DNA from: Ascidiella aspersa
Taxonomy: Eukaryota
NCBI GenBank assembly: GCA_963924565.1
Contig: OZ004614.1
Coordinates: 20,274,001 to 20,338,000 of the forward strand
Direction of reading: 5' to 3'
Length of the DNA: 64,000 bases
In this document: in pieces, positions 22,855 to 63,316 of the stretch
Layout of the letters: each line of letters begins with the position of its first letter
Position numbering within the stretch: position 1 is the stretch's first letter
The notes under the pieces: generated by a model
What the model was told of the DNA's origin: nothing
Seen by the model: the letters and a program-made list of their open reading frames with translations, nothing else
The model's database searches: none
Program-made: the position numbers and the translations under genes

Positions 22855-23151
22855 CTACGACTGCCAGGTGTCCTTTCCCATCTGCCTGTAGTTGTGGAAG
22901 ATGTCGTTGTGCGATTCGGCGCACTTCTGGTTGCACTGGCACGACTTGACCATCATCATTCGCTTCTTAAAGCGATAGCCGTTGTCGCAGGTGAAGGCGA
23001 CTGCCTTGGTGACAGTGCGCTTGGGCACACAGCAGCGTCCGTCCTTGCACGAGCCACAATACTTGGGCGAGTAGACGCGGCTGTGGCAGCCGGAGAAGGC
23101 GAACCTGACTCGGCGTTTGGGCTTCATGGTGCGAACACAGCGCTTGCCCTT
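22855..23151 (-). CDS. CCN2: CCN exon 6 (C-terminal cystine knot), stop TAG
   Basis: Acceptor ttcgcag; KGKRCVRT...[25 protein letters not shown]...FTCDNG...[13 protein letters not shown]...TWQS*. Confidence 0.97.
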   Translation of the reverse strand, partial: KGKRCVRTMKPKRRVRFAFSGCHSRVYSPKYCGSCKDGRCCVPKRTVTKAVAFTCDNGYRFKKRMMMVKSCQCNQKCAESHNDIFHNYRQMGKDTWQS

Positions 23152-26100
23152 CTGCGAAAAGAACAAGAGAAATCGTTTAGTAAGCTGTTAGGCGTGTTTA
23201 GGCGGTTAGCTTGAAAAGTCATGAAGTCACCGCAAGGTGTTTTTACGTTTTTTTAGATTACTAATATAAGCTTTGATGTCACACTTTTAACGAAGCTAAT
23301 AAAGCTTAAAATCAAACTATCCCTCTCTCAGCTTACCTTGATGTGAGAAGTAGGGTCGACGTTGCAGGGGCGCAACTGGCAGAGTCGCTTCTCCTTGCGC
23401 AGTTTGCAGCCCTTGTTGTCGTTGGTCACTCTCTCGGACACCCCCCAGCCACATGTGGTCGTGCAGGATGACCACTCGGTGGTCTGGACTGGACAGCCCT
23501 CGCGGAACTCGACTTGGATGGGTCGGTCGACTTTGGCTGCAAACGAGAAGAGAAATAGGGTTTAATTGATGTGTATAGAAACTTGTAGTTGAACAAAATG
23601 CAGAAAAAATGATTAAATTGATGTGTCGAAACTTGTGCTTGAAAAATGCATTCAACGCCGGATTTGGTTTGCGCAAGATTTCAACAGACTTGCGTAAACG
23701 CACGTGTTCTGAAGGAGAGTTTCGAAAACGTTCTAGCGCTTACACTCTCTAGCCTCCTAGTTAAGCCGCTGGCCAAATCCGTGCCGAAAAGTCGCCCGAA
23801 CGGTCGAAGCGAAGCGGCGCGCGTTTTTTTCCACCTGCGTCTGGCTGGCTTATCGCGCAGCGCCCGCAGGCCCATATAAGGCAATAAGCGGGCCGCATAC
23901 CGCACAAGGCAAGCGCAAGTATTTTTAGTCGCCGCCGCGCACGCGACCTGCCGACTTGGTCGAGAGTTATTTAGCGCTTTGCCTTTCGAGAAAGTCCACT
24001 TCGCAAGGCGGTCACGGCGCTCTTGCCCCAAGATACTGTTGTTGTTTTTATTTTTATAACAGGCCCGACATTTTTTCGCCACACTGCGACACGCTATCGT
24101 CTAATCCTCAAAATCCGTTATGTCATTTAAATTTACCTATCTATACAAGTTTTGCAAAACTTGTTTTCTTTTTGAGTGACATTTGGGTTCCAGTTGTGTT
24201 TCGTCGCGCTCGTTTTACTTCCGCGCTCCAAAGCACTCACCCAATGGGTGTGGCGGGGGTTCGGTGAGCCCTGGGGGTGACCCCGCCGTTTCCGGGGGGT
24301 CACGCGAAAGGATCCCGCACTGTAAAGTTTGGAGAAGCGCGACCGACCCTTGGAAATCGTTTTTGCACGCGGAGGAATCCATTGAAAACGCTAATAAACC
24401 GCCTCCAAAAATTGCGCATTTAAAACCCAAGAGAATTCAAAACTCAAACGAATTTAAAACTCAAGCTCTACGGTTTCTGACAGGATCTCGGAAACCCCCA
24501 AATACGTAAAAGCCCCCGAAAGAAACTAGGAACGCTCGGAATGCAGAGGGGCGACGATAGCGTGTGCGACACTTGCCTGCTGTCTCTACCGACCATCGAC
24601 AGCAGCAGCAAGCGAGCACACACGAGTTATGATAACCCCGGGCACCCGCAGCAGCAACCCTTGTTTGACGAAGGGCACTGACGGAGCGTCGCTTCGCACG
24701 ACAGCCCGACTTATTATCGGGGTGCTGCTGCTGGTGTTGTTTGGGGCCTTTACAAATCGACGAGCGGCGACGACGGAGCGGCGATGAACCGAGGATAAGA
24801 TTGTGGCCGCGGGCGAGGGTCGGCGAGGTTTGTTTACGCGTCCGCGCGACCCCTTTGTTTGCTTTGCCCTCCGTGCAGAAGCGAGCGGACTGCTGTTTAA
24901 CCGCGCGGTTTGCGAATTTTTAATAATATGTTTTTTGTTGTTTTTTTTTTGCGAAAGACGCCGCTGCGGAACAAGGCGTTTATACCAAGCACATTGAAGT
25001 CAATTTTTTTTTTTAGTTTTTTTTTATTTGAAGGATTCTTTTGTTTTTAAGACAAACAAATTATATGCTCACCGGGTAGAATGTTGGACTCGTGTCGGAT
25101 CGGTCTTCCGGTGGGGAACTTTCCCTGGGTGGCGCCGCCGTTCTTGCTGCGGCCCCCGGGGCATACCCACTCGGGGCAGCATTGTCCCGGCTTGGTCACC
25201 AGTCGTGGGTGCTTGCAGTGCTGCAAAGGAAACGACAACACGCGTTAAAAGTGCGCTCTATCGGTCAGTCGGTTTTAATGCTGCGTTTGAATGGACGCCG
25301 AAAAGGTAAGTTGGCGATTCATCGCGTCTGACCAGCGGAAAATGGTGTCATGTCGGCCATTTGGACCGTTCTGGCCGGTTATTTACAGTTGGCTCCTACG
25401 GGAAACGCTTGTCAGTTTGAGCACAAGCAGTTCATAATAGCATTTTCGTCTATTTTAGGCGCCCAAGCGTCCTTACAACGCCCTTCAATGCAATGTTGTA
25501 TAGGACGTCGAAACGTCGATTGATTATATTAAAACTGCTGGATGAGCAACACTCGGTTATACATTACGCATGGGCAGCAATAGCTTATTTCAGTGTTGTG
25601 TTACTTGAAATCGAAATTGTGTGCTTACCTTGGGTGGCAGTGCTGAGATGGAGATTGGGCATTTGGGCTGGCAGCCGATGTTTCCGTCGATACAGAGACA
25701 GGTGGCCTTACAGCCGAGGTCAAAGGTCTCGCCGTTGGCGTAGGTCTTGCTGTTTGAGAAGCAGGCGCGTCCCGGTTTCGCTGTAACGAAGATCGTGGAA
25801 TTCGTGAATTTCGTGTTCGGGCCGCGCGCGGACAAAAGCAGCGGGTGTCAAAAAGCTGTGTTTCCGCTCTCCGGCCACAATAGGGCCGTCGCGCGAACCG
25901 TTTTAAAGGCCCCAAGGATTGTCGACGGGCTTCTAGACTTTCACCCCGTCGTCTACGTCACAATAAGCGCCATTGTTTCAAGCCCCCGAGTCGCGAGATG
26001 GCATGCGCGCGCGCTCGGCACCGCTCTGTTGACTTAGATGCAACCCGAGAGCCAGAATCACTTGTGAGTCTTTTCACCGCGCTACGCTCGTAACGCGAGA

Positions 26101-28883
26101 TTTTAATTATTGGCGCGGAAAGAATTGGAACAAGGGCACGCGCCCAATGCGCAACAACTCAATACAAGGTATGAGCATATCTAGGCGTTCACCCCATACG
26201 CTGGCTACGTTCGCTCAAGGCCTAAAAGTTGTGCATTTCGGGTGATTTTTTGCGGTAAAGGAGTTTGTTTTTTCGGTGTAAACTTCACCTTATGGTAAAA
26301 ACAATGTATTACTGTAATTTATTTATTTGCTCAGTTAAAAGAAGAGTTAACTCTTATTTTGGTAGTGCGTTACTGTGCTATCAGTTCCGACTAAAAATAA
26401 AACTATACTAGTTAGGTTATTTGAGCATTTCTAGAAGGGGTTGCGACAATTGTTCGGTGATTTTGAAGGGAGTGTAGCAAGAAAAAAGGGTTAACAACCA
26501 TTGCTCTAAATTATTCGCTATATCAATATGAGAATTTTCGCTCACCAACGCATATTCCGCTCTTGACGTCCACGTCGCTGTAGCTGCAGTAGAGCTCCTT
26601 GTGGTAGTCGCACATGCGCGACTCGTCGCAGCTCTGTCCCAGTTGACGGGCGCAAGTCTTGCAGCAGCCGCACTCGTCCGTTACCATGGAAACGCCGGAC
26701 GGACAGGCGGTCACCTTGGGGCAGTTGGCGCACTTGCGTCGGCACTCGGGCGACGGTGTCGTGATGGCCTTGATTTTGCCGGCTTCCGAAAGCTGCAAGT
26801 TAAACAAAAACGGGTTTAATTTTTTTGGTAAACGCTTAAAGTGATTTCGGACCATTTTGAAGAATATCAAAGCTCATATAGAAGTATAAGTATCATTTTG
26901 AACGTTTCGAATTTCGGACTCTTTTGAAGTTGCCCCGAAGTAAAAAAAAACTGGACGAATGCTTGGAAACCGAAGCACTCGAGCTCTTGGTAATGGATTT
27001 CGTCCATTTGAGGCGAAAACGCGTCGGCGTTTGCCTTTGATACGCGCCCGCGCAGTTTTATCGCTTAGCGCGCACGGCGTGGGTCCGCCGAGATAAATCC
27101 CTTTGCGTGGGGCATTCCAACTCAGCGAGCTTAGCGCTCCGAGTTGGTCTCGCACTCCCCACTTACAACTTTATCTAAATTCACATGCCAGAGCGCGTGA
27201 TGCATTAGCTATACTGGCAGGTATCTAAAGAGAAATACAAAAAATACCTTTTCGGGTTGAAGAACTGTGCTGAGTAACAACTTGGCCACAATTCGTTAAG
27301 ATTTCGAAAGCTATAACTTTAATTCCTTTTTGAACCACAGTTTGCGGGCCATTGACAAGTTACGGTGTCGTTCGGTTGCCTGAGTCGCGATCGCTCGGGT
27401 TAGCGACTTGCGCGCCAAAGAAGCCGCTGCCCGGCATTTTTCGAGCGCGACTCGCGCAGTTTCCTGTCTAGAAGCCGTCGGTGTCTCGTTCCTCTGCGCG
27501 TTTAGGCGAGCGAGCACACGCGACGGCCGCTGTTGCGGGCAGAGAAGATTAGAGAGGCGTAATCTACCGCCTCGAGCCGCCGTCGCCGCCGCTGCGTTTT
27601 TGAACCGCGCGATTTCCAGCCATTCACGCGCTAACCTTGACGCGCTCATCCCCCTATATCCAACCTTGCCCAGCGCCCCAAGCCTGAGCAGCGAACTTTA
27701 AACCTCTCCTTTCGGGGTGCCTGGCGATGAATAGCAGGGGGCGGGGGCCCGGTATTTGATTTCTCTCTTTCGCTTTTACAATGGACGCGCGCGAGTGTAC
27801 CCACTTAGCCGCCTGTTTCGCCGATGTTTTGTCGGAGTTGGGTCTAAATTCCAGGGGCCCGCGCGTCTGTCCTGGGGCGTGTTTGACCGCACAACAGGCC
27901 AACCCGCCCCGCGCCATTCAGACCCACTTATTAAGTCGATTGTCTCGTGTGTTTTTGTGCCCTTTGTACGCGCTGTCGTGCGGCCACCGAGAATAGCAGC
28001 GTCAGGCGCTTTTTATTTCCAAGTAACACGCGCGGCGTCGAAAACAAAATTCCGGTTCTGCTTCCCAGATTGCGCCATCTTGTTAATTGCGACACGCGCG
28101 CGCACGAATATAGAGCGGAGGCGAGCAACGCTAGCTCCAGCGGGCGACCAACACGCATGGCCCGCGGGCAGGAATGTCGCCTAATTCGATAATTTCATGT
28201 GATTTGTGCTTTGCGCTGCGGACGATTTACATAGCGGACCAGGTGCGCTTATCTCGTAGGCTCGGCGCGCGGCCTTGGGCAACTAATGGCTACGTGTGGC
28301 GACAAAGCGCCCGGGCTTAGCCTTAGCGCGTTGCCAGGGCTCTGTGGCGCAACACTGTTGTTGATCGCGTTGTGTGCACTGCGAGCTGCTTGGGCAAACA
28401 AGCCATCGCGAATCCATAAATTCCGCGGCGGTCTTGCGCCAACAGCGCCGGGGTTTACGGATCGGTCTGGATCCCGGGCCGAGTTCCATAAATAGCAGGC
28501 GACGGGCGCGGCGCTGTTTGCCCAGTCAAGAATGATTCCGCTCTACAAACGAGCGCGCTCTGTTGATGTCTGGCCGACTCGACACCTGGCAGTGACTTGC
28601 TCCATAGTTTTTTTAACTTGTGTAACTGTTTTTCCTTATAACTATCTCTTAGTTGCTAGCTGCCGTGAACATCTGACTCTAAGCGTGTTGGTGCAACTTC
28701 ACACATAAAACATTTACGCAGCGTATAAGGATAACCGTGAAAATAATCAGCCAATAATTCCGATAACCACTGAGTGCTACAGCATGTTAAAAAAACTTGC
28801 AAAGTCTCAAACTCACTTACCGTTGCGGCAAAGGCAATTGCGCAGACAAGGGTGGTCGTGAAGTAGATGAAGGAAGTCGACAT
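22855..28883 (-). CDS. CCN2: CCN family matricellular protein (CTGF/CYR61/NOV-like), full gene model, 6 coding exons, 368 aa; orthology to a specific vertebrate paralogue not resolved
   Basis: join(28883-28821, 26792-26546, 25780-25629, 25220-25073, 23536-23337, 23151-22855) = 1107 nt. All introns GT-AG, phases 0,1,0,1,0 consistent. Signal peptide, IGFBP (12 Cys, GCCxxC), VWC (10 Cys), TSP1 (6 Cys, WSxCxxTCG), CT knot (10 Cys) = 38 Cys, the canonical CCN architecture. Confidence 0.96.
23337..23536 (-). CDS. CCN2: CCN exon 5 (TSP1 module)
   Basis: Not in the ORF track; translated by hand: (A)[66 protein letters not shown]. Acceptor ttgcag, donor gtaag. Confidence 0.96.
25073..25220 (-). CDS. 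CCN2: CCN exon 4 (VWC C-terminal part plus hinge)
   Basis: Acceptor ttgcag, donor gtgag; [20 protein letters not shown] followed by a G/P/basic hinge. Confidence 0.94.
25629..25780 (-). CDS. CCN2: CCN exon 3 (VWC module, N-terminal part)
   Basis: Acceptor ttacag, donor gtaag; (A)[50 protein letters not shown]. Confidence 0.96.
26546..26792 (-). CDS. CCN2: CCN exon 2 (IGFBP module)
   Basis: Acceptor ttgcag, donor gtgag; LSEAGK...[54 protein letters not shown]...SGICV. Confidence 0.96.
26861..26912 (-). mobile_element. Foldback/Penelope-like element fragment in CCN intron 1
   Basis: agaatatcaaagctcatatagaagtataagtatcattttgaacgtttcgaat matches the inverted arm of the family. Confidence 0.65.
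28821..28883 (-). CDS. CCN2: CCN exon 1 (signal peptide [21 protein letters not shown])
   Basis: ATG at 28883 in context AAGATG; hydrophobic 21-aa stretch; donor GTAAGT at 28820; phase 0 matches exon 2. Confidence 0.85.
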
Positions 28884-52359: not shown

Positions 52360-52491
52360 TCAAACCTCTTCGGATTCTTCCTGATTCCTGAACTCAGGTG
52401 AGAGTTTCAGCAGCTTGGGTCCAGTAAGACCAATGGCAGCTGCTCCAGTGGGTGCCGTTATAATGATCGAAAGAACGGCGATCGTTAGAAC
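52360..52491 (-). CDS. SLC9B2: SLC9B last exon (VLTIAVLSIIITAPTGAAAIGLTGPKLLKLSPEFRNQEESEEV*)
   Basis: Hand translation; acceptor ctctag; TGA at 52362-52360; AATAAA at 52162-52167 downstream. Confidence 0.95.
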   Translation of the reverse strand, partial: VLTIAVLSIIITAPTGAAAIGLTGPKLLKLSPEFRNQEESEEV

Positions 52492-55400
52492 CTAGAGAAA
52501 GAGAATGGACCTGTTACCCGGCGTGAATCTATTTTTTTTTGTTTGTTTGTTTGGGGGGACATGACAATTTTTCAGAAATTACGTTACAAAGTTACGTCAT
52601 AAAGCTAGTCAAAACATGAAATCACAAAGTAAACGTGTCGTCATAAAAAATAACCGAAATACGGCATAGTTTGCTTATTTTGTATAAAATTTGGGTTCGA
52701 GGTGTTGCGTTAAGTACAAAATCTTTTATTACTCGGACAAAGCGCAAAAATGCCCCTACATCGTATAAGTTGCCCATAATTTTTATTTTCGAGGATGCGA
52801 TTGGACGCACGGCGCTTTGAGCTAAAAGGATTTTGCTAAAGTGGGCCATTTTATCAAAAGGCATATAAAACACTGAACACATCTTCAAGGTAGTTAAAAT
52901 GGAAAAAAACTACAGTTTGAGGGTCCATGGCCATGTCTGCCCCCTTGAATTCGCCCCCGCCTGTTACCAACCTTTTTTGCACTCAAGTGTAGCCAAATAG
53001 CCTTTAGATCAGGGGTTATTAAACTGGGGTCCATGGACCCCTTGGGGGTCCGTGAACTAGTTTTAGGGGGTCCATAAAACCCAATTGAAATATTAGTGTA
53101 TATTTAAGAAGTAATATATTTATCAAAAAAATAAAATAAAAACGGCTTTGTACTTATGCATACGGCTCCATTTCACTTTCACATTCACATTTTTCGACCG
53201 AAATCAGCAGATTTATACAGTTTTTTTTTTGTGACGTAAATTTATGACGTAAGTTTTAAAATTTTGCCTACCGGGGTCTACGCGAGACAAAAAAAATTTA
53301 GGGGTCCGCGGTAAAAAAAGTTTAAGAACCCCTGCTTTAGATCGAATAACACTGAAAGCAGACTCTTTCGCATTAATTTCTTGTCTGTAAATATACGTAG
53401 ATAAATACAAAGATTAATATCATTACCTTTGTTGCTAATTCGACAACTTCCTCACTCGATTTGTGTTCTTTGGCGAAGTCCAGTGCTGTTGCTCCAATCG
53501 CCGCCTATATGTGAAAAAAATGATGGTTTAATTGTTATAAATATCCAAATATACAACATAAAAGGGCGTGAAGAAAACGCTTGTATTTAAGAAATGGCTT
53601 TTTTTATTAGGTGTTGCCACTACACTGTGTTCGGTGGCACTTTGATTTCGGGTGTGCAGTGCCAAATTTTAACTTCTGGTGTTTAATCATGTTTTTGCAA
53701 ACCTTAGTTCGTAATTAGCCTGTCACAATTCAACTGTTTCCGATATCTTAAATGCCAAATGTACAAAATGCAAGTGTGCACACAAAGTGCTTAAAAAAAG
53801 TGTACAAAATGCAAGTGTGCACACAAAGTGCTTAAAAAAAGTGTACAAAATGCAAGTGTGCACACAAAGTGCTAAAAAAATTAAAGGTGTGCACCTTACA
53901 CAGAACTCAGACTGGCACCGGTTCCCAAACGTTTTGCTCTCGCGACCCCATTTTAATTTTACAGAAACTTACAAGACCTCCCGATGAGAATTTGGTATGT
54001 TAGACATAAATATAGTCAATAACAATCATATTTATGGTTAAAGCATTCCCACTCTTGACCGATTTTCCAAGATTTGCCATGAATGTAAGTAAATGCACGA
54101 CTTTTAGGCGTCATTCACGATTTTTAGTTTCCAATAGAGAAAAAATATCTTGTACTTATGTATATTAGATTCACGTAAAATAAATGAAACTCATTTCGCG
54201 GTGGTTATCCAGAACCACTGTTGTTTTTTTTTTTTTTTATAAAAGCAACATGCTTTTTTTGAAGTCTATGCTCAGCAAATACTTAAAAACAAGCGTAATG
54301 ATGACGCCATAAATACGATGTTGCTTTAGAGGCGCAAATACCATAAACACATTTTGATAGTTGTGCGTTTTTAGGCTCTATTGCTAAGTTTTATGCTTAT
54401 ATATTTTCCGCTTATGTTTCGTTAAGGCTTCAACTGACTATACAACGTAGCCAATATTACCTGCACTGTTGCTTTGGGAAGCCAGGCCACCGTCATAAAG
54501 ACCTTTTCCTTCATATTGAAGGAAGACGTCCAATACACGGACAGAAATGCGGCAAGGCTGCGAAACGCCAGTCCAATGAGAATTAGAGCTGCTCCCATGC
54601 CTAGAAGAAATGAATGTGCCATGATACATCTTTAAAACCGTATTTACAGAACTTGGTCGGACTAATTAGGACAGTGGTTCTCAAACTGGGGTCCGCGAGA
54701 CAATTTTGTGGGACCGCGAAGCACCTAACAAAAAATCTACAACCCGACGCTCCTGAAGAAGAAAACCTCTTGTGCCAAAAAAAAATCAGAAAACTTACTT
54801 TTCCAAAGCAAGCTGATTAGTTGTTCATTCACGTTATTGTACACTTCGAGTTGAATTGTCCATTGTGACATCATAGTATTACATTGTGCTAATGAGAGTT
54901 ACGTTTTTATCGCTTGCTGCGCTGTCTATGTGGGCTGTACGGTCACGGTTTTAAAACTGTTCGTGATTGCTTCACACAAAAAATTGATAGCCGAGCTCAT
55001 AGCATAGAAGCAAGTACACCCATCTGTAGTGATGATTGATACCATAAAAACAAATGTTATTTTGTGTATATTTTTAAGGGACCGTGAGTAATCTAAAAAG
55101 TTGCTGAGGGACCGTTGCACAATTTTTCTAAAAAAGTTTGAGAACCACTGAATTAGGACGACACAGTCAAGTCGCACGTTTTTTTCTTTAGCAGTTTTGC
55201 GGCTGCATTTCATGTATGTTTTATTATGGGTAACATACCCATTTCCTTTCAGTGTCTGAAATGTCATTCATTTATGATTGACGAGTTGCATGGTGAATTG
55301 TTTCGTGTTAAAATAAAGGTCAACGCCAAAGTGTTAAATTTACAATAAAGATGTTCGATACCTATTTCGGTCGGATTATGATGTCCGATATGGTGGACAA

Positions 55401-58400
55401 AAGTTACATTCGCCCGAACCGATGTTAAATTGACATCATAACTCATGTAAATTAAGCAAAATTAAAACCTGCATAACAACAGTTTCTTCCAGCCCCGGGT
55501 TGTTATGCTGCATGCGTTACAGCATTAGAAATATTTCTTAATTTCGAACCTAAATACAATTTTCTGAAACAATCACCAATGGCTAAAATAGACTAATTAA
55601 TTGCAGATCTGCGTCTACAAGTTAACAGCCAACAGATTGCAACCCCTAATGAATTATGCGGTTGTAAATTTCTTGACATTTATTAGAGAAACCCTACAAA
55701 CGACTTCTGGTTTAACTGACGCTAAGCCTTAAGGTTGGTATACACTATAGACGCGTCCGGAGTTAACGTTAAACGTTTTTTTTTTAAACAACGCTTTCGG
55801 TTGCGAAAAGATGAAATAATTCAACTTTGACGCTTTCGGTTAGAAGCGAGGAAATTCGCCGTTAAAGCTGACAACAAGTTACGTGTGAACTGGACGACGC
55901 TAGCGTTTTGCGCCAGACTCCAACGCTGGAAGCAAAACGCGTCTGTTGTGAACCAACCTTTATCTTGCTGCCTATTTAATCACTACATAACCATAGTGTG
56001 ATTGATAAAAGCGCTTACCGACTGTTGAAGGCTTGAGCGAATCGACTGTGACCGAAGCTCCGATTAAACCAAACAGGAGAGGTTGGAAAATGACCCAAAG
56101 ACCCGCAAAGGTTTTGGCCACCTCTTTCTTTTCGTCTCCCCACCTTTAAACAAAAGTATATGTGCGGTTGGTCAGAATTGAAATGAGATTTTAAGTTTAC
56201 TTTAAAATAGTAGAATCGGTCGATATAACTTTTTTCGACCGATACCATGATGTTAATACACACGTAACAATCAATAACCGATTTTTTTGTGATTTCTATA
56301 CAAAAAATCATTTTTTAGTAGCATACAGTACCTTAAAATACAGTAGGCCTAACTTTGGATAATAAAAACTCTTATAATTATACAACTCCTGTTATAATTA
56401 TACAATTTCATAATTATACAACTCCTAATTTACATACATAGCAAACAACCAAACACTTAAACAAAAAACTTATATCATTGTAATTTACCTTATATCTAAA
56501 TTTCAACACAATATATTTAATCAGAAACGTGGTCACTTATTTTTACTAGTCGACGTCCAGAGTGACTGGCTATGAGCTGTACGACACATCGAACAAAAAA
56601 TGGGCGCTGGTCTGGAACCCAACACAACGAACATCATTTGGGTTAGGGTGCGGGTTAGCGTTTGGGTTTGAGTAGGTTAGGCAATATTATGGAATAATAA
56701 TACTTGGCCCACCCTCACAGGAACACTTACCGACACCCTAACCCAAACATTGTGCGTTGCTTCAATAATTCTTTCAACACTGTCGTAGGATACCAGCGGC
56801 AAAAATGTCCTATGTTGTTGAATTCTGAGCTTTCAGGCCAGTCCAAAAACAAAATAACTTACCTTATGGCAGCAACAAATGGCATCACAAGGCTGGCCAA
56901 AGCGCTCGCGCCTGCAAAGTGAACCAACTTGCTAGCAAACGCACTGAACAGTGCAAGGCCAAGGAGAAGTGCAGACCTGTAGCCGTTCCTGCCTTTCTAC
57001 AGAAGACATATTACACTTACAATTTAACGTGTAAAAATAACCCGATTTTGGCCAAATGTGTAATTTTGTCGTGTCATGAGTCCGGCTGTGACTCTACAGA
57101 CCGTATTTCGCCAATTTGCGTAACTAAATACGGTTGATATTTAGCAATCCACACGATACATGGTTGGAATATATCCACCTTATGCTACTCCGCCTTTAAA
57201 ATTTCCAGTTAACGGCATATCAGTTTCAAAACATCGCATGCGCACGTCGGACTCGGAACTCGGGTAGTTTTACGTAGTCTTACTCGAGTCCGAGTCCGAA
57301 ATCCGACTCTAGCGAAACAAACCAAACCCATCAATGCCCAAGTCCGACTCTAACTCCGCAACCCTAGTAGAAACACCAAAAAAGGGTAAAAACCCGAATT
57401 TAATATGCCGAACAAATTGACTAACTATAATTACGATAATAATATTTAACCCACTTTCGAAGATGTCGATTAGACTTGCAGGATTAAATGATCTACAATC
57501 CGAACTAAGCTTACGTTTAATTAGATCTAAACGAAACCAGAGGAAAACCGAAACATGTTGTTCGATAGCATAAAGTAATTTCTATAGTAACTGTTTGCAG
57601 ATAGCGGTATTGACTTAAAATAATTTAGTGTTCATATTTGCAAATCCTGACATAATTAGTAATATCCAAAGGTTAGTATTGGAAATATTTGGTTTAGATA
57701 CTCATATAAGATATAGTAAAACGTTTTTTTAAACTAGACCTAAGGTTAACTTGAAATGTCACTTAATTTAAACAAGAAATATTCTAATCAAAAACTTAAA
57801 ATGTTGTTTAAGTCAAAACAAGAAATATTCCAATCAAAGGACGAGTTTTTGATTTGTCATACCATGTTTTTTGATGGAAAGTACCACAAAAAAATCCCAA
57901 GAAATACCCCGACGCCGATGCCAAGAATCAACTCCAGTGGGCCGTGAAGAACCTTTTCCACAATATTTCCTGCATAAAAGAATAAAGATCACAAAAACAC
58001 AACCCATGCTATTTTAAACTTTACCTGGTGAAAACTTTTTTTTTAATTTTGTCTTTATATATGGATACAGGTGAAGTGGATTCGAGTAGGCCTAAACAGC
58101 ATAAATCTGCCCCATTTTTTCAGTTGCGAAGAGTAACACAATAACAAAGAGATTTCTATCCTGCAATTATATCTCTACATTGTCCTGATGATCAGGTTTT
58201 CAAAATATCAGTAATATGACTTTCGCTATGCGTTAAGTTATTCTCGTTGATATTGGGCGAGTCGAGTATACCAGTGCTTCCCAACCTTTTTCAGTTCGCG
58301 ACCCACCATTAATGCAAGTTTTATTGTGCGACCCACAATGAGATATGACCAAACGAATGAAAAACAAATTAATGAGACAAATAACAATGTATACACGTGC

Positions 58401-61400
58401 AATACGCACTGAAATAGTTAATGCGACACAACACATTTTATTGTTACTCATTTGTTGTATTGTTGCATCATTGTTACGTAAAGATAACGCAATAATTTCC
58501 CGATATAATAGAAAACGGTAAAAATGCTTCGCAACCCACCTCAAATAGCTTCGCGACCCACTGGTTGGGAAGCCCTGGCTCTTTGAGTATACCATAATGC
58601 CGAAATAAATCTACTACTGGAATCAGTTTGTCTAATTAGGATTAGGCACAAGCAAAGCAAGGCTATAAAAATCCAGCCCGCAGTGAGGTTCGAAGTCACG
58701 ACCTCGGCCATATATACTCCTGTTACTTACCTTCGGAAAAAATCATTCCGAGCACAACGTTAAAGCCCGTAATTCCGATGACGTCATTCAGGGCTGCGCC
58801 TGCTATCAGAAAGGTGGGAATTCCCCCCTCTACCCCGTACCCGTTGTCTTGCAGGTAGAGAAGGGAGGGAACCACAACCGCAGGTGAAACGGCGCATAAC
58901 ACGAACCTGAAACATAAAATAGTTGTTTGGCGTCGTCATTTGTTGCTAAAAAGTCGATCATCGATGATTTTAAATACGGATGTCCGATGATTATTATGTG
59001 AATGGAGGCGATACCCTATGCCAGGGATTCCAACCTTCTTTGCTGCTCGTACCCCCTTGTCAGGTCAGAGCGTTCTTCGTACCCAAAAAAAAATTCTGAT
59101 GGAAATTTTGAGATATACAATGCTTTTATAGCTCATTTAAACGTTAAACCAGTGATCGGCAAACTTTTTTTTTCGCAGGCCCAAGTACTCTTTTTAGAGC
59201 TATTGAAGGCCCGCTTAGTAAAACCACTATTAAAAAGTGGCGTATTCCGGATATTTTATTTTAAGGTGAAATATGCCACAGCGCCTTGGTGCCCAAAACA
59301 GACATACCTATACGAATGTTATTATCGGTACTTTTCTGATATAATAGAATGGTATCGGTGCCGCTTTGATTGCAAATTTATTTAGGTATTATATCTATGC
59401 TTTGTAATCTAACTGAGCGCGTTTTTGAAATTGAAAACATATTGAAAAAAGTGAATATGACCAGTTGACCACATATGTGGCTATAAGCTTAACACTGAAA
59501 AGGCAGTTTTTAAAGAGCAACCCGAAAAACATTACATTTTCACGTTTTCATATTATCAACTTTACAAATTTTACCACTACCGGTACGTTGAACAGTAGAC
59601 TCGTGGGTATATGTGAGTCACATTGGGCATTTTTTAATTTTAAGGCCGAATATGACTGAATATTAATATTCATAAATATAAATGTTAATTTGTTTTAACA
59701 TAAGTTTGGTTGCTCGCTAAGTAAGGTTGCTTTGAGTAATTTGTAAAAATTTCTGATAGTTATCTTGTTCATTTCCGAAAATATTACACGATGAAATTTC
59801 GAGCGTGCTTCCCTTTGGTGTCATTTGGTATACGACCGGATCGACAGTATAGTTTTGCCTAATATATCGACTATCGGAACAAAATAGGAAGTGTTGTACA
59901 TGTTGTACATTTTTATGTATGTATACTCTTTTCTGTTTAGCAGCTTTAAACCTGTCCTTATGTAGTGTTTTTTTAATTATATAAAGTTAAAATTCGTAAT
60001 GCCATTCATCGATGCCCAAGCGACCAAGCGTAGGCCTTGAAAGTGTTGTAAAGAGGTTGTTGCAATACAAATTAAGGGCTTTGTCACAGAAGAATCGCGG
60101 CTCTATGTAGCCACATACAGGTGGTGTCTTTGTATAATGTAACTCACCCGATGACAAATCCCCATTCCCACGGAAAGTTGATCATAACGTTCGAAAAGCA
60201 GGCCACGGCGCAGCATTCCACCACGGTTGTCGAGCAGGCGAAGCCAATCAGAATCCACTTTAGCTTGAACAGCGCCTGTATATAATGTGGCTTGTGGTCG
60301 AAAAACAATTACAAGCAAACTACACATCTGACATTTTTCTTCTCGCATTTTTTTCATATGCATTTGGCGGCGTTTCTCCAAAATATTGCAAGACAAAGGA
60401 AATGTTACATGATTTCAGAGCACCATTAATAGTTTTTAGCTATTGAGGTTGCGACACAATTGCAGTGTTTTAAGTTGTATAAAATGTGTTTTTGTCTTAC
60501 CTGGCATTGTTTTCTCGCGTTTTTTTCACTTGCATTTGGCCGCGTTCTCCAAGCATTGCAAGACAAAGGGAATCTTATATAATTTTCAAGCAACTTTAAT
60601 AGTTTGCAGCTTTTCGGTTTGCCATAAAACTGTAGTGTTTTAAGTTTTACTAAATGTATTTCATTGCTCACCAGTTTATTAAAACGTCCAACCAGTCAAA
60701 TGTTTTAGCCTTAGTTTCACAAAAATTCTAAAACCCTGATTAGGTTTTGGCCCCTTGTACTACCGAACTTGTACATCCACGCCAATAAGTGCCATATAAA
60801 TACATTTGCAAGGATTTTTATTTTGTTAAACTCATGTTTCGTAATTTACCTTCCCGTCCAATCCTATTCCAGCTCTGATTAGTATCACCGTGAGGGCGAT
60901 GAGCCGAAGAGACGACGACCATTTTTGGTTTATGTCCTTTGCAACATCGATGTGAGGAACATTTCGTAGAAGAAATCCCATAACCAACATTCCTAACGAA
61001 AAAATAGGCAAAAAGCCATGTGTCAGAAGTCTATTTAGCGTAACTGTATAATGCCAAAACTTCCGTGATACGTTTTTTCACAGAAATCGGTGAATATTTT
61101 ATCTATCCTTGGAAAAAATAAGCACTTATGTTTAATCGCGCCTAAGGCGCCGAAAATTTGACCTAACGAATTCCTTTATTTTTCAAATTTGCGTTTTTAC
61201 GATTATAACAGACAACATTAAGGGCTTTTAGTAACATATTCAAAAAACTGAAACCTGGCAGTTGTTCTTTTTTTGCGTTAATATTTGTTATTGTAATTTT
61301 TTTGCCTAAGTTATTTTTCGAAACAGCAGCCATGATTTAAACACAAAATCCAACCATACATTGACAATAATACTTTATGGGATTTTTGAGCATGGATAAT

Positions 61401-63316
61401 TAGCCTAAATCTACCTTTTACATTTTGGTATAAACTTTGAAAATAATCACTGTATATATACTCTTGGTAGTTAGTTAAAAAACTAATATTATTTAACTTC
61501 CGGCGACTGAACGTAGCATATAGGTTTCGAAAGTTTTAAATATTGACAAAAGTTGACCAGGCTAATGCTTGATCAAAATACATTTTTTGGCTCGAAATCA
61601 GCATATTTCTGAAGACTATTTATATTTTGACGTCAATTTATGACGTTATATTTGAAAATTTCTTGCCCACCGTGGTCCACACGAAGTCAAAAAAAAATTT
61701 AGGGGTCGGCGGTAAAAAAAGTTTAAGAACCCTTGTTTTAAAGCGACCCCACCGGCAATTTCTTGCACCTACCCAACAAAGGTGGAAGCGGGGGAATTCC
61801 CGGAATCGAAAGCTTGCCAGTGACGTAACCAGCTGCCATGCAGGAGAGCAGCAGTACAATGACCCCGAACAAATTACCCCCTGGAAGAGTCTCCGAGGGG
61901 GCAATACTCCAGGGAACACCCCAGACCAGAAACCCAAGTAGACCTAAACAGCAAAATAGATTTAAACGTTTCTAGTTTAGATCAGTGTTCTTCAACTTTT
62001 TTGGTTTGGTAAACAAGTTGTTGTGACGAACATATGCACCATGTTTACTTAAAACGTTAAACTGAGGTTAAAAACGATATCAAAAACCTTCGACGGCGTG
62101 TCACCGAAAGTTAGTTCACAGCGATTACAGCACCAATGTCTTATAGAAATCGGTAATTACTGGCAAATACGATGCAGCATTAATGGATTATTAAAAGTTT
62201 GTGATGCACCCTTGACCTTGTATACCTTTTCGTACTAGTGCACAGCATGCATATTTTGGTGCACCCTAGGATGCACCTTGAACACCGGTTGAAGAGCACA
62301 GGTTTAGATATCAAATTATATTTATAGCAGTATTTTGGGTACTTATAATTGACGTTAATGTGATCATTAAAAAAAAAAACATTGTTTAAAATCATAAAGT
62401 TATATAAATCGCAAAACTTTAAGGTTTGCAACGTGTCTCAGAAATAAAGAAGACCATATCGTGCACTTCACAATATTAATTAAATAAAAGATTACTTAGA
62501 TTTAGTAAAAGCTAATGTTCCAAAATTTGACAATTCTTTTCATACCGATACCCCAAAATCTAGACAAAGTGTATAGCAGTCCGTTCCGTTGATAAATGAC
62601 ATCAATATTATACTCAAATATATAAAATAAAAACTTGTACATAGTACTAACGCATGCACAAATTAGTTTTGTACGAATCGGCAATAGCAAATTATCGAAC
62701 GAGAAGTATCGGACCCTACATATTACCACCACTTAGTAACGGAACTCGATTTATATGTAAAATCATTCGACATCTCTATTTAGAGCGTGGTAAGGTAAGC
62801 AACTATGACTTTTTTCCTGTCATGTTTGCATCTTACCAACGCTTACAAACTTCGCCAATTTGCCTTGTGGGGGACACAATAGAGACTTTAGGCACTTTTG
62901 CACGCACGGGTCTTCTTCTGTGGTTACGCTGTAACTGCTTGCCATGCAGCAGCTGCAAAAACCCGACAGTCGTGCACATCTTGATTCTAAAAATGTACGT
63001 AACATCGGGAAATTCAAAAGTTTTGAACAGATTGACACAACCAAATGTCAGCATGTCCAAAAGAGCCAATTGAGTTAATTTTATAATGTTTTGTGCTACA
63101 TATAAGTCAAAAAATCAACCCTTTAAGATTAAGCCTACATTTAAAAATGTAATTTTTCATAAAACACTTCATTTTAAAGTTCATTATTATAATGTTGAAC
63201 TGAGATACAATTAATGCAGCAGTGTGTATACTATTACCTCTTGCCATCTTTCTTTTCAGTTTGACTGATTCGAATGATTTTTTGCTTTTTTCTGCATCTA
63301 AATCGTGTGATCTTTC
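52360..63316 (-). CDS. SLC9B2: SLC9B/NHA-type (NHEDC) cation/H+ antiporter, gene model with 11 confident exons plus 1 probable 5' exon; N-terminus may extend beyond the window
   Basis: join(63316-63238, 62986-62837, 61943-61773, 60992-60850, 60275-60148, 58906-58731, 57969-57863, 56996-56863, 56143-56019, 54600-54461, 53504-53427, 52491-52360) = 1563 nt, GT-AG with consistent phases. Motifs CPPxG, LPGGNLFG, PPLPPLLGML, WSSSLR, RAGIGLD, AVSPAVVVP, FQPLLFGLIGA, WLPKATVQAAIG and SIIITAP match NHA1/NHA2 as I know them. Confidence 0.95.
52518..52959. mobile_element. Degenerate hAT-like MITE in the last SLC9B intron
   Basis: 8-bp direct repeat cctgttac at 52510-52517 and 52960-52967; degenerate ends ccggcgtgaatc / gaattcgcccccg. 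Confidence 0.55.
53010..53334. mobile_element. hAT-type MITE (family A, opposite orientation) in SLC9B intron
   Basis: TIR caggggttattaaact / agtttaagaacccctg; perfect TSD ctttagat; shares the ggggtccatggacccc end with 18486-18822. Confidence 0.9.
53427..53504 (-). CDS. SLC9B2: SLC9B exon (AAIGATALDFAKEHKSSEEVVELATK)
   Basis: Hand translation; acceptor atatag, donor gtaatg; phase 0-0. Confidence 0.93.
53760..53880. repeat. Tandem repeat, 41-bp unit x3
   Basis: tgtacaaaatgcaagtgtgcacacaaagtgcttaaaaaaag repeated almost perfectly; each unit contains the palindrome gtgtgcacac. Confidence 0.92.
54461..54600 (-). CDS. SLC9B2: SLC9B exon (MGAALILIGLAFRSLAAFLSV...FNMKEKVFMTVAWLPKATVQ)
   Basis: Within ORF 54422..54622; acceptor ttctag, donor gtaata. 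Confidence 0.96.
54672..55150. mobile_element. hAT-type MITE in SLC9B intron
   Basis: Perfect 16-bp TIR cagtggttctcaaact / agtttgagaaccactg; perfect TSD aattagga. Confidence 0.92.
55732..55959. mobile_element. PIF/Harbinger (Tourist-like) MITE
   Basis: TIR aggttggtatacactatagacgcgt / acgcgtctgttgtgaaccaacct; TTA on both flanks. Confidence 0.75.
56019..56143 (-). CDS. SLC9B2: SLC9B exon (WGDEKKEVAKTFAGLWVIFQPLLFGLIGASVTVDSLKPSTV)
   Basis: Hand translation; acceptor ttaaag, donor gtaagc. Confidence 0.95.
56863..56996 (-). CDS. SLC9B2: SLC9B exon (KGRNGYRSALLLGLALFSAFASKLVHFAGASALASLVMPFVAAIR)
   Basis: Hand translation; acceptor ctgtag, donor gtaagt. Confidence 0.93.
57863..57969 (-). CDS. 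SLC9B2: SLC9B exon (NIVEKVLHGPLELILGIGVGVFLGIFLWYFPSKNM)
   Basis: Hand translation; acceptor atgcag, donor gtatga. Confidence 0.93.
58272..58577. mobile_element. hAT-type MITE in SLC9B intron
   Basis: TIR cagtgcttcccaacc / ggttgggaagccctg; repeated gcgaccca motifs; left flank gagtatac recurs 7 nt beyond the right end. Confidence 0.8.
58676..58708 (-). pseudogene. tRNA-like 3'-half fragment (T-arm and acceptor strand)
   Basis: GCCGAGGTCGTGACTTCGAACCTCACTGCGGGC resembles the variable loop, T-arm and acceptor of eukaryotic tRNAs, followed by TTTTT; no D-arm/A-box found. Confidence 0.4.
58731..58906 (-). CDS. SLC9B2: SLC9B exon (FVLCAVSPAVVVPSLL...GYGVEGGIPTFLIAGAALNDVIGITGFNVVLGMIFSE), ion-binding core
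   Basis: Hand translation; acceptor tttcag, donor gtaagt. Confidence 0.96.
60148..60275 (-). CDS. SLC9B2: SLC9B exon (ALFKLKWILIGFACSTTVVECCAVACFSNVMINFPWEWGFVIG)
   Basis: Hand translation; acceptor atacag, donor gtgagt; PWxWGF motif. Confidence 0.94.
60337..60672. repeat. Diverged tandem duplication, ~172-bp unit x2, in SLC9B intron
   Basis: gcatttggc, ttgcaagacaaagg, ttaatagttt and agtgttttaagtt each occur twice at ~172-nt spacing. Confidence 0.8.
60850..60992 (-). CDS. SLC9B2: SLC9B exon (MLVMGFLLRNVP...KWSSSLRLIALTVILIRAGIGLDGK)
   Basis: Hand translation; acceptor cgttag, donor gtaaat. Confidence 0.95.
61590..61735. mobile_element. hAT MITE family A, partial copy
   Basis: Aligns by eye to 53199-53334 (aatttaggggtc.gcggtaaaaaaagtttaagaaccc.tg); left end not identified. 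Confidence 0.7.
61773..61943 (-). CDS. SLC9B2: SLC9B exon (LLGFLVWGVPWSIAPSETLPGGNLFGVIVLL...PPLPPLLG)
   Basis: Hand translation; acceptor tttag, donor gtagg; phase 1-1. Confidence 0.94.
61983..62301. mobile_element. hAT-type MITE in SLC9B intron
   Basis: TIR cagtgttcttcaac / gttgaagagcacag; perfect TSD gtttagat. Confidence 0.85.
62837..62986 (-). CDS. SLC9B2: SLC9B exon (N-terminal region, ...LLCPPQGKLAKFVSV)
   Basis: Acceptor ttttag, donor gtaag; CPPxG motif characteristic of NHA N-termini. Confidence 0.88.
63238..63316 (-). CDS. SLC9B2: SLC9B probable upstream exon (ERSHDLDAEKSKKSFESVKLKRKMAR); may contain the start codon or be partly UTR
   Basis: Acceptor ttattag, donor gtaata, open frame ending in phase 1 as needed by the next exon; no homology support. 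Confidence 0.55.

Follow-up and report, generated by a model that had tools for sequence, protein, structure and literature searches.

An Asn-Asp Site in an Intact Gene

The gene examined here creates a puzzle: How did a protein of the SLC9B (NHA) family, with an intact reading frame, come to have asparagine in place of the first of the two aspartates (DD) that its relatives carry at the ion site, and what would this change mean for transport? It lies in a window of 64,000 nucleotides (the whole stretch of DNA that was analysed, from contig OZ004614.1 of the ascidian Ascidiella aspersa), in which positions 58783-58788 read GTCATT on the plus strand and AAT GAC on the minus strand, encoding Asn-Asp (ND) within FLIAGAAL-ND-VIGITGF. 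The core exon, of 58 amino acids, aligns without gaps (phmmer) to residues 239-295 of human NHA2 and 238-294 of bison NHA2, so that N and D fall on D278 and D279 of the human protein; together with the reading of the strand, this bears out the claim of the initial annotation that ND replaces DD at these positions. Among solved structures, the exon matches only those of bison and human NHA2 (E 1e-17 and 3e-16, respectively). The gene runs on the minus strand from 63316 to 52360 in 12 exons, which form a frame of 520 codons plus stop with no internal stop codon, and GT-AG boundaries are found at all 11 introns. Its parts are as follows, in window coordinates.

63238..63316, minus strand: exon 1 in the window, poorly conserved N-terminal tail, with a boundary predicted solely from splice signals
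62837..62986, minus strand: exon 2, Cys-rich stretch and CPP motif ahead of the first membrane helix
61773..61943, minus strand: exon 3, LPGGNLFG ... LPPLL
60850..60992, minus strand: exon 4, Arg equivalent to the human R177 region (SSLRLIAL)
60148..60275, minus strand: exon 5, Glu201 (human E215), with Thr197 replacing an otherwise invariant Pro (human P211)
58731..58906, minus strand: exon 6, the core exon, with the unwound helix AVSPA and the ND helix, 176 bases
58783..58788, minus strand: ND motif, Asn264-Asp265 in the frame within the window, matching D278/D279 of human NHA2
57863..57969, minus strand: exon 7, coding
56863..56996, minus strand: exon 8, coding
56019..56143, minus strand: exon 9, coding, with Ser393 replacing human E407
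54461..54600, minus strand: exon 10, Arg418 (R432), Trp444 (W457), Lys447 (K460) and Thr449 (T462)
53427..53504, minus strand: exon 11, coding
52360..52491, minus strand: exon 12, the last, coding, with TGA stop

Immediately beyond the window (G000:C8:20338197-20338054) there is a candidate first exon of 48 codons that begins with ATG and is predicted to join in phase, in which case the full protein would have 568 residues. In the RNA run X10, of which ~6/100 was sampled, no exon-exon joint was present among the matches listed, and the core exon was represented by only 2 partial reads that were <90% alike.

The asparagine codon recurs in other sequence data. One contig of run X3 (depth 118.7) spans the whole core exon and keeps AAT, as does a short contig of the metagenome X2 (depth 3.4); the differences of these contigs from the window, at 58789 and 58795, lie outside the Asn codon and both read as synonymous. 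The X1 contig over 58641-59068 has 0 differences from the window (X1 may be the source sample), and no difference is listed for the 3 raw reads of X9 that cover the codon. The motif GAALNDVIG is identical in the orthologues of Ciona and Clavelina and in two further protein fragments. An assembly error (GAT misread) or a decayed gene, to which we give a negligible chance, is ruled out by the other haplotypes that keep the codon, the same motif in two named orthologues and two fragments, the open frame and the canonical splice sites, in keeping with the initial description of this gene as undecayed.

Several other elements were noted around the gene. High-copy short interspersed repeats occupy parts of its introns (window 53010-53334, 54672-54790, 56623-56713 and 57235-57291), where read depth is in the hundreds as against 1-4 in unique bins, and a diverged direct duplication of ~180 bases can be recognised by eye at ~60340-60670, in the intron upstream of the 60148-60275 exon. 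Adjacent genes for tRNA-His and tRNA-Met (L009 3001-3149) lie ~2 kb past the window end, upstream of the predicted first exon, and are followed by an apparent degenerate partial copy of the tRNA-His region. Elsewhere in the window, minus-strand exons at 22858-26873 have the domain order IGFBP, VWC (below cut-off) and cystine-knot, from which the corresponding gene would be CCN-family-like.

Family Placement: NHA2-Like Rather than CPA1

The nearest proteins belong to Ciona intestinalis (XP_002126822.3) and Clavelina lepadiformis (XP_076824736.1), with 75% and 77% identity, respectively, across the membrane domain and no difference at the ion site. Both contain PF00999 and are annotated in databases as sodium/hydrogen exchanger 9B2 or 9B2-like, the motif being left uncommented. 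The AlphaFold2 model that we used, made for the Clavelina orthologue instead of the window protein (96-row alignment, mean pLDDT 84.4), matches human NHA2 7b4l with E 1e-30 and a TM score of 0.92 by target, its scores being 0.88-0.92 to NHA2 versus 0.73-0.78 to NhaP/NapA; the structural alignment, a whole-chain comparison that bears on the extra N-terminal helix (14 TM) of the family, spans 443 columns of a 443-residue NHA2 chain. In sequence and fold the ascidian protein is thus closest to NHA2, and in a tree built without an NHE outgroup it is nested among SLC9B proteins, as proposed initially for an intact but divergent SLC9B paralogue.

Identity to Pan NHA2 is ~47%. Human and bison NHA2 (SLC9B2; PDB 7b4l and 7p1k) share with the ascidian protein, besides the fold, the equivalents of human E215, V244, S245, D279, R432, W457, K460 and T462, including the glutamate (E215) and arginine (R432) specific for NHA, and the partner residues that the initial annotation had listed are indeed retained. 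The residues that set it apart from them are N (D278), A (S276), T (P211), G (A282) and S (E407), with human numbering given in parentheses. Taken together, these features would file the protein as a variant of SLC9B by descent, lying outside the canonical DD type given its ND motif.

The initial view that ND is the signature of CPA1 exchangers (NHE, NhaP) needs to be qualified. ND is not exclusive to CPA1, being found also in CPA2s, and CPA1 exchangers are marked by Glu at motif position 5 in combination with Arg at position 8 (PMC6181914; cited here, like the other PMC articles, from part of the text). The ascidian protein resembles CPA1 exchangers in its ND at positions 6-7 and in its Arg at position 8 (Arg418), which is common to all NHA2-type proteins and hence not diagnostic, but differs from them at position 5, four residues before the Asn, where the marker glutamate is absent and Gly260 is found. 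Its unwound helix has A-V-S-P-A, the same as in NHA2 and with Ser instead of Asp, rather than the P-T-D-P motif of the NhaP-I/NHE clade (PMC6181914); moreover, its arginine would pair with the NHA-type Glu, and identity to NhaP is 18-20%, with lower TM scores. Because the marker glutamate is absent, a switch to a CPA1-type (NHE/NhaP) site is ruled out.

Ascidian Orthologues and DD Paralogues

The three full-length ascidian ND proteins form a single clade with support of 100, placed among chordate DD proteins. Their core exon is 95-97% identical, while the whole membrane domain is 75-81% identical and the same exon has 81-90% identity in five pairs of DD orthologues. Such identity in the core indicates strong constraint and not decay, and a conservation exceeding that of DD pairs would suit a specialised function. 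A search of the same genome for a DD paralogue returned two further SLC9B genes, one at 6.42 Mb of C8 with SSFDD (G000:C8:6421953-6429401) and the other at 15.31 Mb of C6 with SGIDD (G000:C6:15311091-15317621). These group with proteins of Styela and Ciona savignyi, and with a second protein of Ciona intestinalis, all of which are DD; the ND gene is therefore one of three old ascidian paralogues. In the literature search, which left subscription journals mostly outside its coverage, no functional study was found of the Ciona or Clavelina ND orthologues, or of any ascidian NHA.

The core introns differ among the three genes. One of the DD paralogues has an intron splitting the exon before GIPT, and in the other the exon appears to end just after the DD motif, whereas the ND gene has a single exon of 176 bases.

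Distribution and Origins of the ND State

Among the best 150 representatives at 50% identity, DD is present in 113, DN in 16, ND in 6 and other residues in 12, with 3 gapped; hence, 34 of the 147 that have residues at the site are without DD. The whole set of 352 rows gathered, skewed by redundant vertebrate sequences and by having been seeded with an ND protein, contains 297 DD, 20 DN and 15 ND. Beyond ascidians, the named carriers of ND come from limpets (Patella vulgata, P. caerulea and Lottia (two)), a chiton (Liolophura) and insects (Scaptodrosophila XP_030376682.1 and Pyrocoelia). These NHAs keep the equivalents of E215, R432 and K460 where the rows cover them. Unlike the ascidian proteins, they fall in separate clades, have Ser or Thr at the S276 position and maintain Pro at the P211 position, as do all 10 non-ascidian ND rows.

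A single ND clade of ascidian, mollusc and insect proteins was rejected (p-AU 9e-6; 37 rows, motif masked, LG+G4), while a joint clade of ascidians and molluscs was borderline, with p 0.031 for 37 rows with the motif masked versus 0.31 for 70 rows unmasked; the ND groups for these topology tests were named after the first tree had been seen. The fewest state changes on the 70-row tree are 3, and the 348-row FastTree tree places one further ND row apart. On these phylogenetic grounds, ND is a minority state that has arisen repeatedly, at least twice and probably three times or more. The possibility, raised in the initial annotation, that ND might be common across invertebrate SLC9B proteins is borne out by half: ND recurs in several invertebrate lineages, yet its carriers are a minority, with 6 of 150 family representatives.

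Other replacements of DD deserve mention in their own right. DN, in which the aspartate considered the main ion site is missing, is commoner than ND (16 vs 6 of the 150 representatives) and occurs in Porites, Ptychodera, Antedon, Anneissia and Holothuria, that is, in coral, hemichordate and echinoderm proteins, and EN is found in sea stars. Such DN and EN forms of SLC9B may perhaps be stranger variants than ND.

Residues around the Site and Probable Transport Mode

What, then, does the ND protein do? The simplest explanation, to which we would assign a probability of roughly 0.65, is that it is an ascidian NHA (SLC9B) paralogue in which the first Asp has become fixed as Asn, and that it has probably remained an electroneutral 1:1 Na+(Li+)/H+ exchanger. 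The proposed mechanism would have Asp265, equivalent to D279, as the only binding site, occupied by cation and proton in alternation, and a bridge between Glu201 and Arg418 that would neutralise the arginine, thereby making the first aspartate dispensable. In place of the salt bridge between D278 and R432, which can break, Asn264 would offer a hydrogen bond, an exchange that might shift cation affinity or pH response while leaving the reaction unchanged. One point in favour of this proposal is that NHA2 is electroneutral despite its DD, R432 being bridged to E215 (PMC8850199); because of this, ND should not change stoichiometry, and the altered stoichiometry suggested in the initial annotation loses its ground.

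Two engineered proteins offer comparisons. In human NHA1 (SLC9B1), the substitution D258N is the same change from DD to ND and gives activity similar to that of wild type (adjusted p=0.439, n=5), so that in this case ND could not be told apart from DD, whereas the double Asn mutant loses ~60% of activity (PMC13672361). This evidence needs to be tempered, since D259A and D259N keep most activity in the same assay (PMC13672361), which may therefore resolve small changes poorly; furthermore, D258N is a single engineered change in the other paralogue, introduced without the substitutions that accompany Asn in ascidians. The other comparison is with NhaA of Escherichia coli, in which D163N is rescued by P108E plus A160S (Masrati et al. 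2018; PMC6181914). The triple mutant has Asn at position 6 and a compensating Glu of NHA2 type, with indications of electroneutral transport; in contrast, the ascidian protein has Arg and not Lys at position 8 and no counterpart of the serine at the A160 position. A different line of work counts against our preferred reading. D278 of human NHA2 can also bridge R432, and Na+ binding is proposed to sever this link (PMC12072577); simulations and an AlphaFold3 model place D278 in the Na+ shell, with breakage of the D278-R432 link proposed as the gating trigger (PMC8850199, PMC12072577); an ND protein cannot break the bridge in the same way.

The surroundings of the site have changed along with the first aspartate. 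The ascidian ND clade has Thr where all 293 of the 293 non-gap DD rows have Pro (human P211), Gly in place of A282 and Ser in place of E407. Two alanines stand three and two residues before Asn264, the second of them at the S276 position, which is Ser in 269 of 297 DD rows. The E407 position is Glu in 218/297 DD rows and has lost this residue in 3 of the 4 limpet-type ND rows listed; in NHA2, E407 is the salt-bridge partner of R177, the bison equivalent of which, R176, is required for Li+ complementation.

These private substitutions, in combination with a near-invariant core exon, are an argument for a change of substrate or mode, by which the ND paralogue would carry out K+/H+ exchange, discriminate otherwise between Li+ and Na+, or perform H+/Cl- cotransport, the DD paralogues keeping Na+/H+ exchange. 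Such paralogues are available to fill the ancestral role; the E214/R431 swap made bison NHA2 Li+-specific, indicating that the network tunes selectivity (PMC8850199); and insect NHAs are reported to vary in substrate. Yet the unwound helix AVSPA, a segment tied to K+ selectivity (PMC6181914), is identical to that of NHA2, the D258N change is near neutral in human NHA1, and the insect clade that probably holds the reported non-Na+ proteins, by an assignment of our own, is DD in the sample. We regard a new substrate or mode as unlikely. Still more improbable is that the ND protein has become slow or non-transporting and assists a DD paralogue as its regulatory subunit or as partner in a heterodimer. 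It has lost one carboxylate and the neighbouring serine, as well as E407 with its tie to R177, and D163N alone inactivates E. coli NhaA (PMC6181914); but the equivalents of D279, E215, R432, K460, W457 and T462 are all kept, conservation of the protein is highest in the transport core and E407 is not retained throughout the DD rows either. An altered coupling ratio, from electrogenic to electroneutral or the reverse, has very little in its favour, for although the first aspartate is tied to electrogenicity in bacterial CPA2s (PMC6181914), NHA2 of DD type is already electroneutral and Asn is unable to carry a second proton.

Implications for the Two-Aspartate Question

The literature search, with its limited coverage of subscription journals and with alignments unreadable where presented as pictures, found no mention of a natural ND-type SLC9B, and the article supplements searched held nothing relevant, again apart from alignments presented as pictures; nothing on this type is present in the available parts of PMC7941709 and PMC9269769. 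A prior mention is conceivable. The available part of a 2026 structure paper still takes DD as characteristic of SLC9B (PMC13672361), and the question of why an electroneutral NHA2 keeps two aspartates is open in the literature (PMC8850199, PMC12072577, PMC6181914). Strongly constrained ND proteins that occur in nature, in genomes also encoding DD paralogues, offer ready-made comparisons for this question.

In evolutionary terms, one might go further and envisage at least three convergences on ND, in ascidians, molluscs and insects, each following duplication and each beside a DD paralogue, to form a distinct class with shifted pH set point or cation preference. We consider this possible, if on balance doubtful. 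Were it true, the ascidian clade would be the cleanest natural test of D278 and of the D278-R432 bridge of human NHA2, because of its near-invariant core and its private changes of Pro to Thr and Ser to Ala. The payoff is limited, since the direct change is close to neutral in human NHA1 and public databases already carry annotations of the orthologues. Most likely, the gene is a real, conserved and recurrent but modest variant of a known transporter family having the usual family reaction, perhaps with retuned affinity or pH response.

The insect ND protein provides a further connection with function. Scaptodrosophila XP_030376682.1, a drosophilid ND SLC9B, has 36-40% identity to a beetle DD protein of NHA1 type from the main insect clade; Tribolium NHA1 itself has 35% identity to Drosophila NHA2 and 53% to Drosophila NHA1 (PMC10068851). 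The former values being near 35% and far from 53%, the Scaptodrosophila protein is probably the fly Nha2 orthologue. K+/H+ exchange has been reported for Tribolium NHA (PMC10068851), and second-hand reports describe fly Nha1 as performing H+/Cl- cotransport and fly Nha2 as an electroneutral Na+/H+ exchanger (PMC9174904, PMC9644288). Hence, a natural test of an ND-type NHA may perhaps already exist in fly Nha2.
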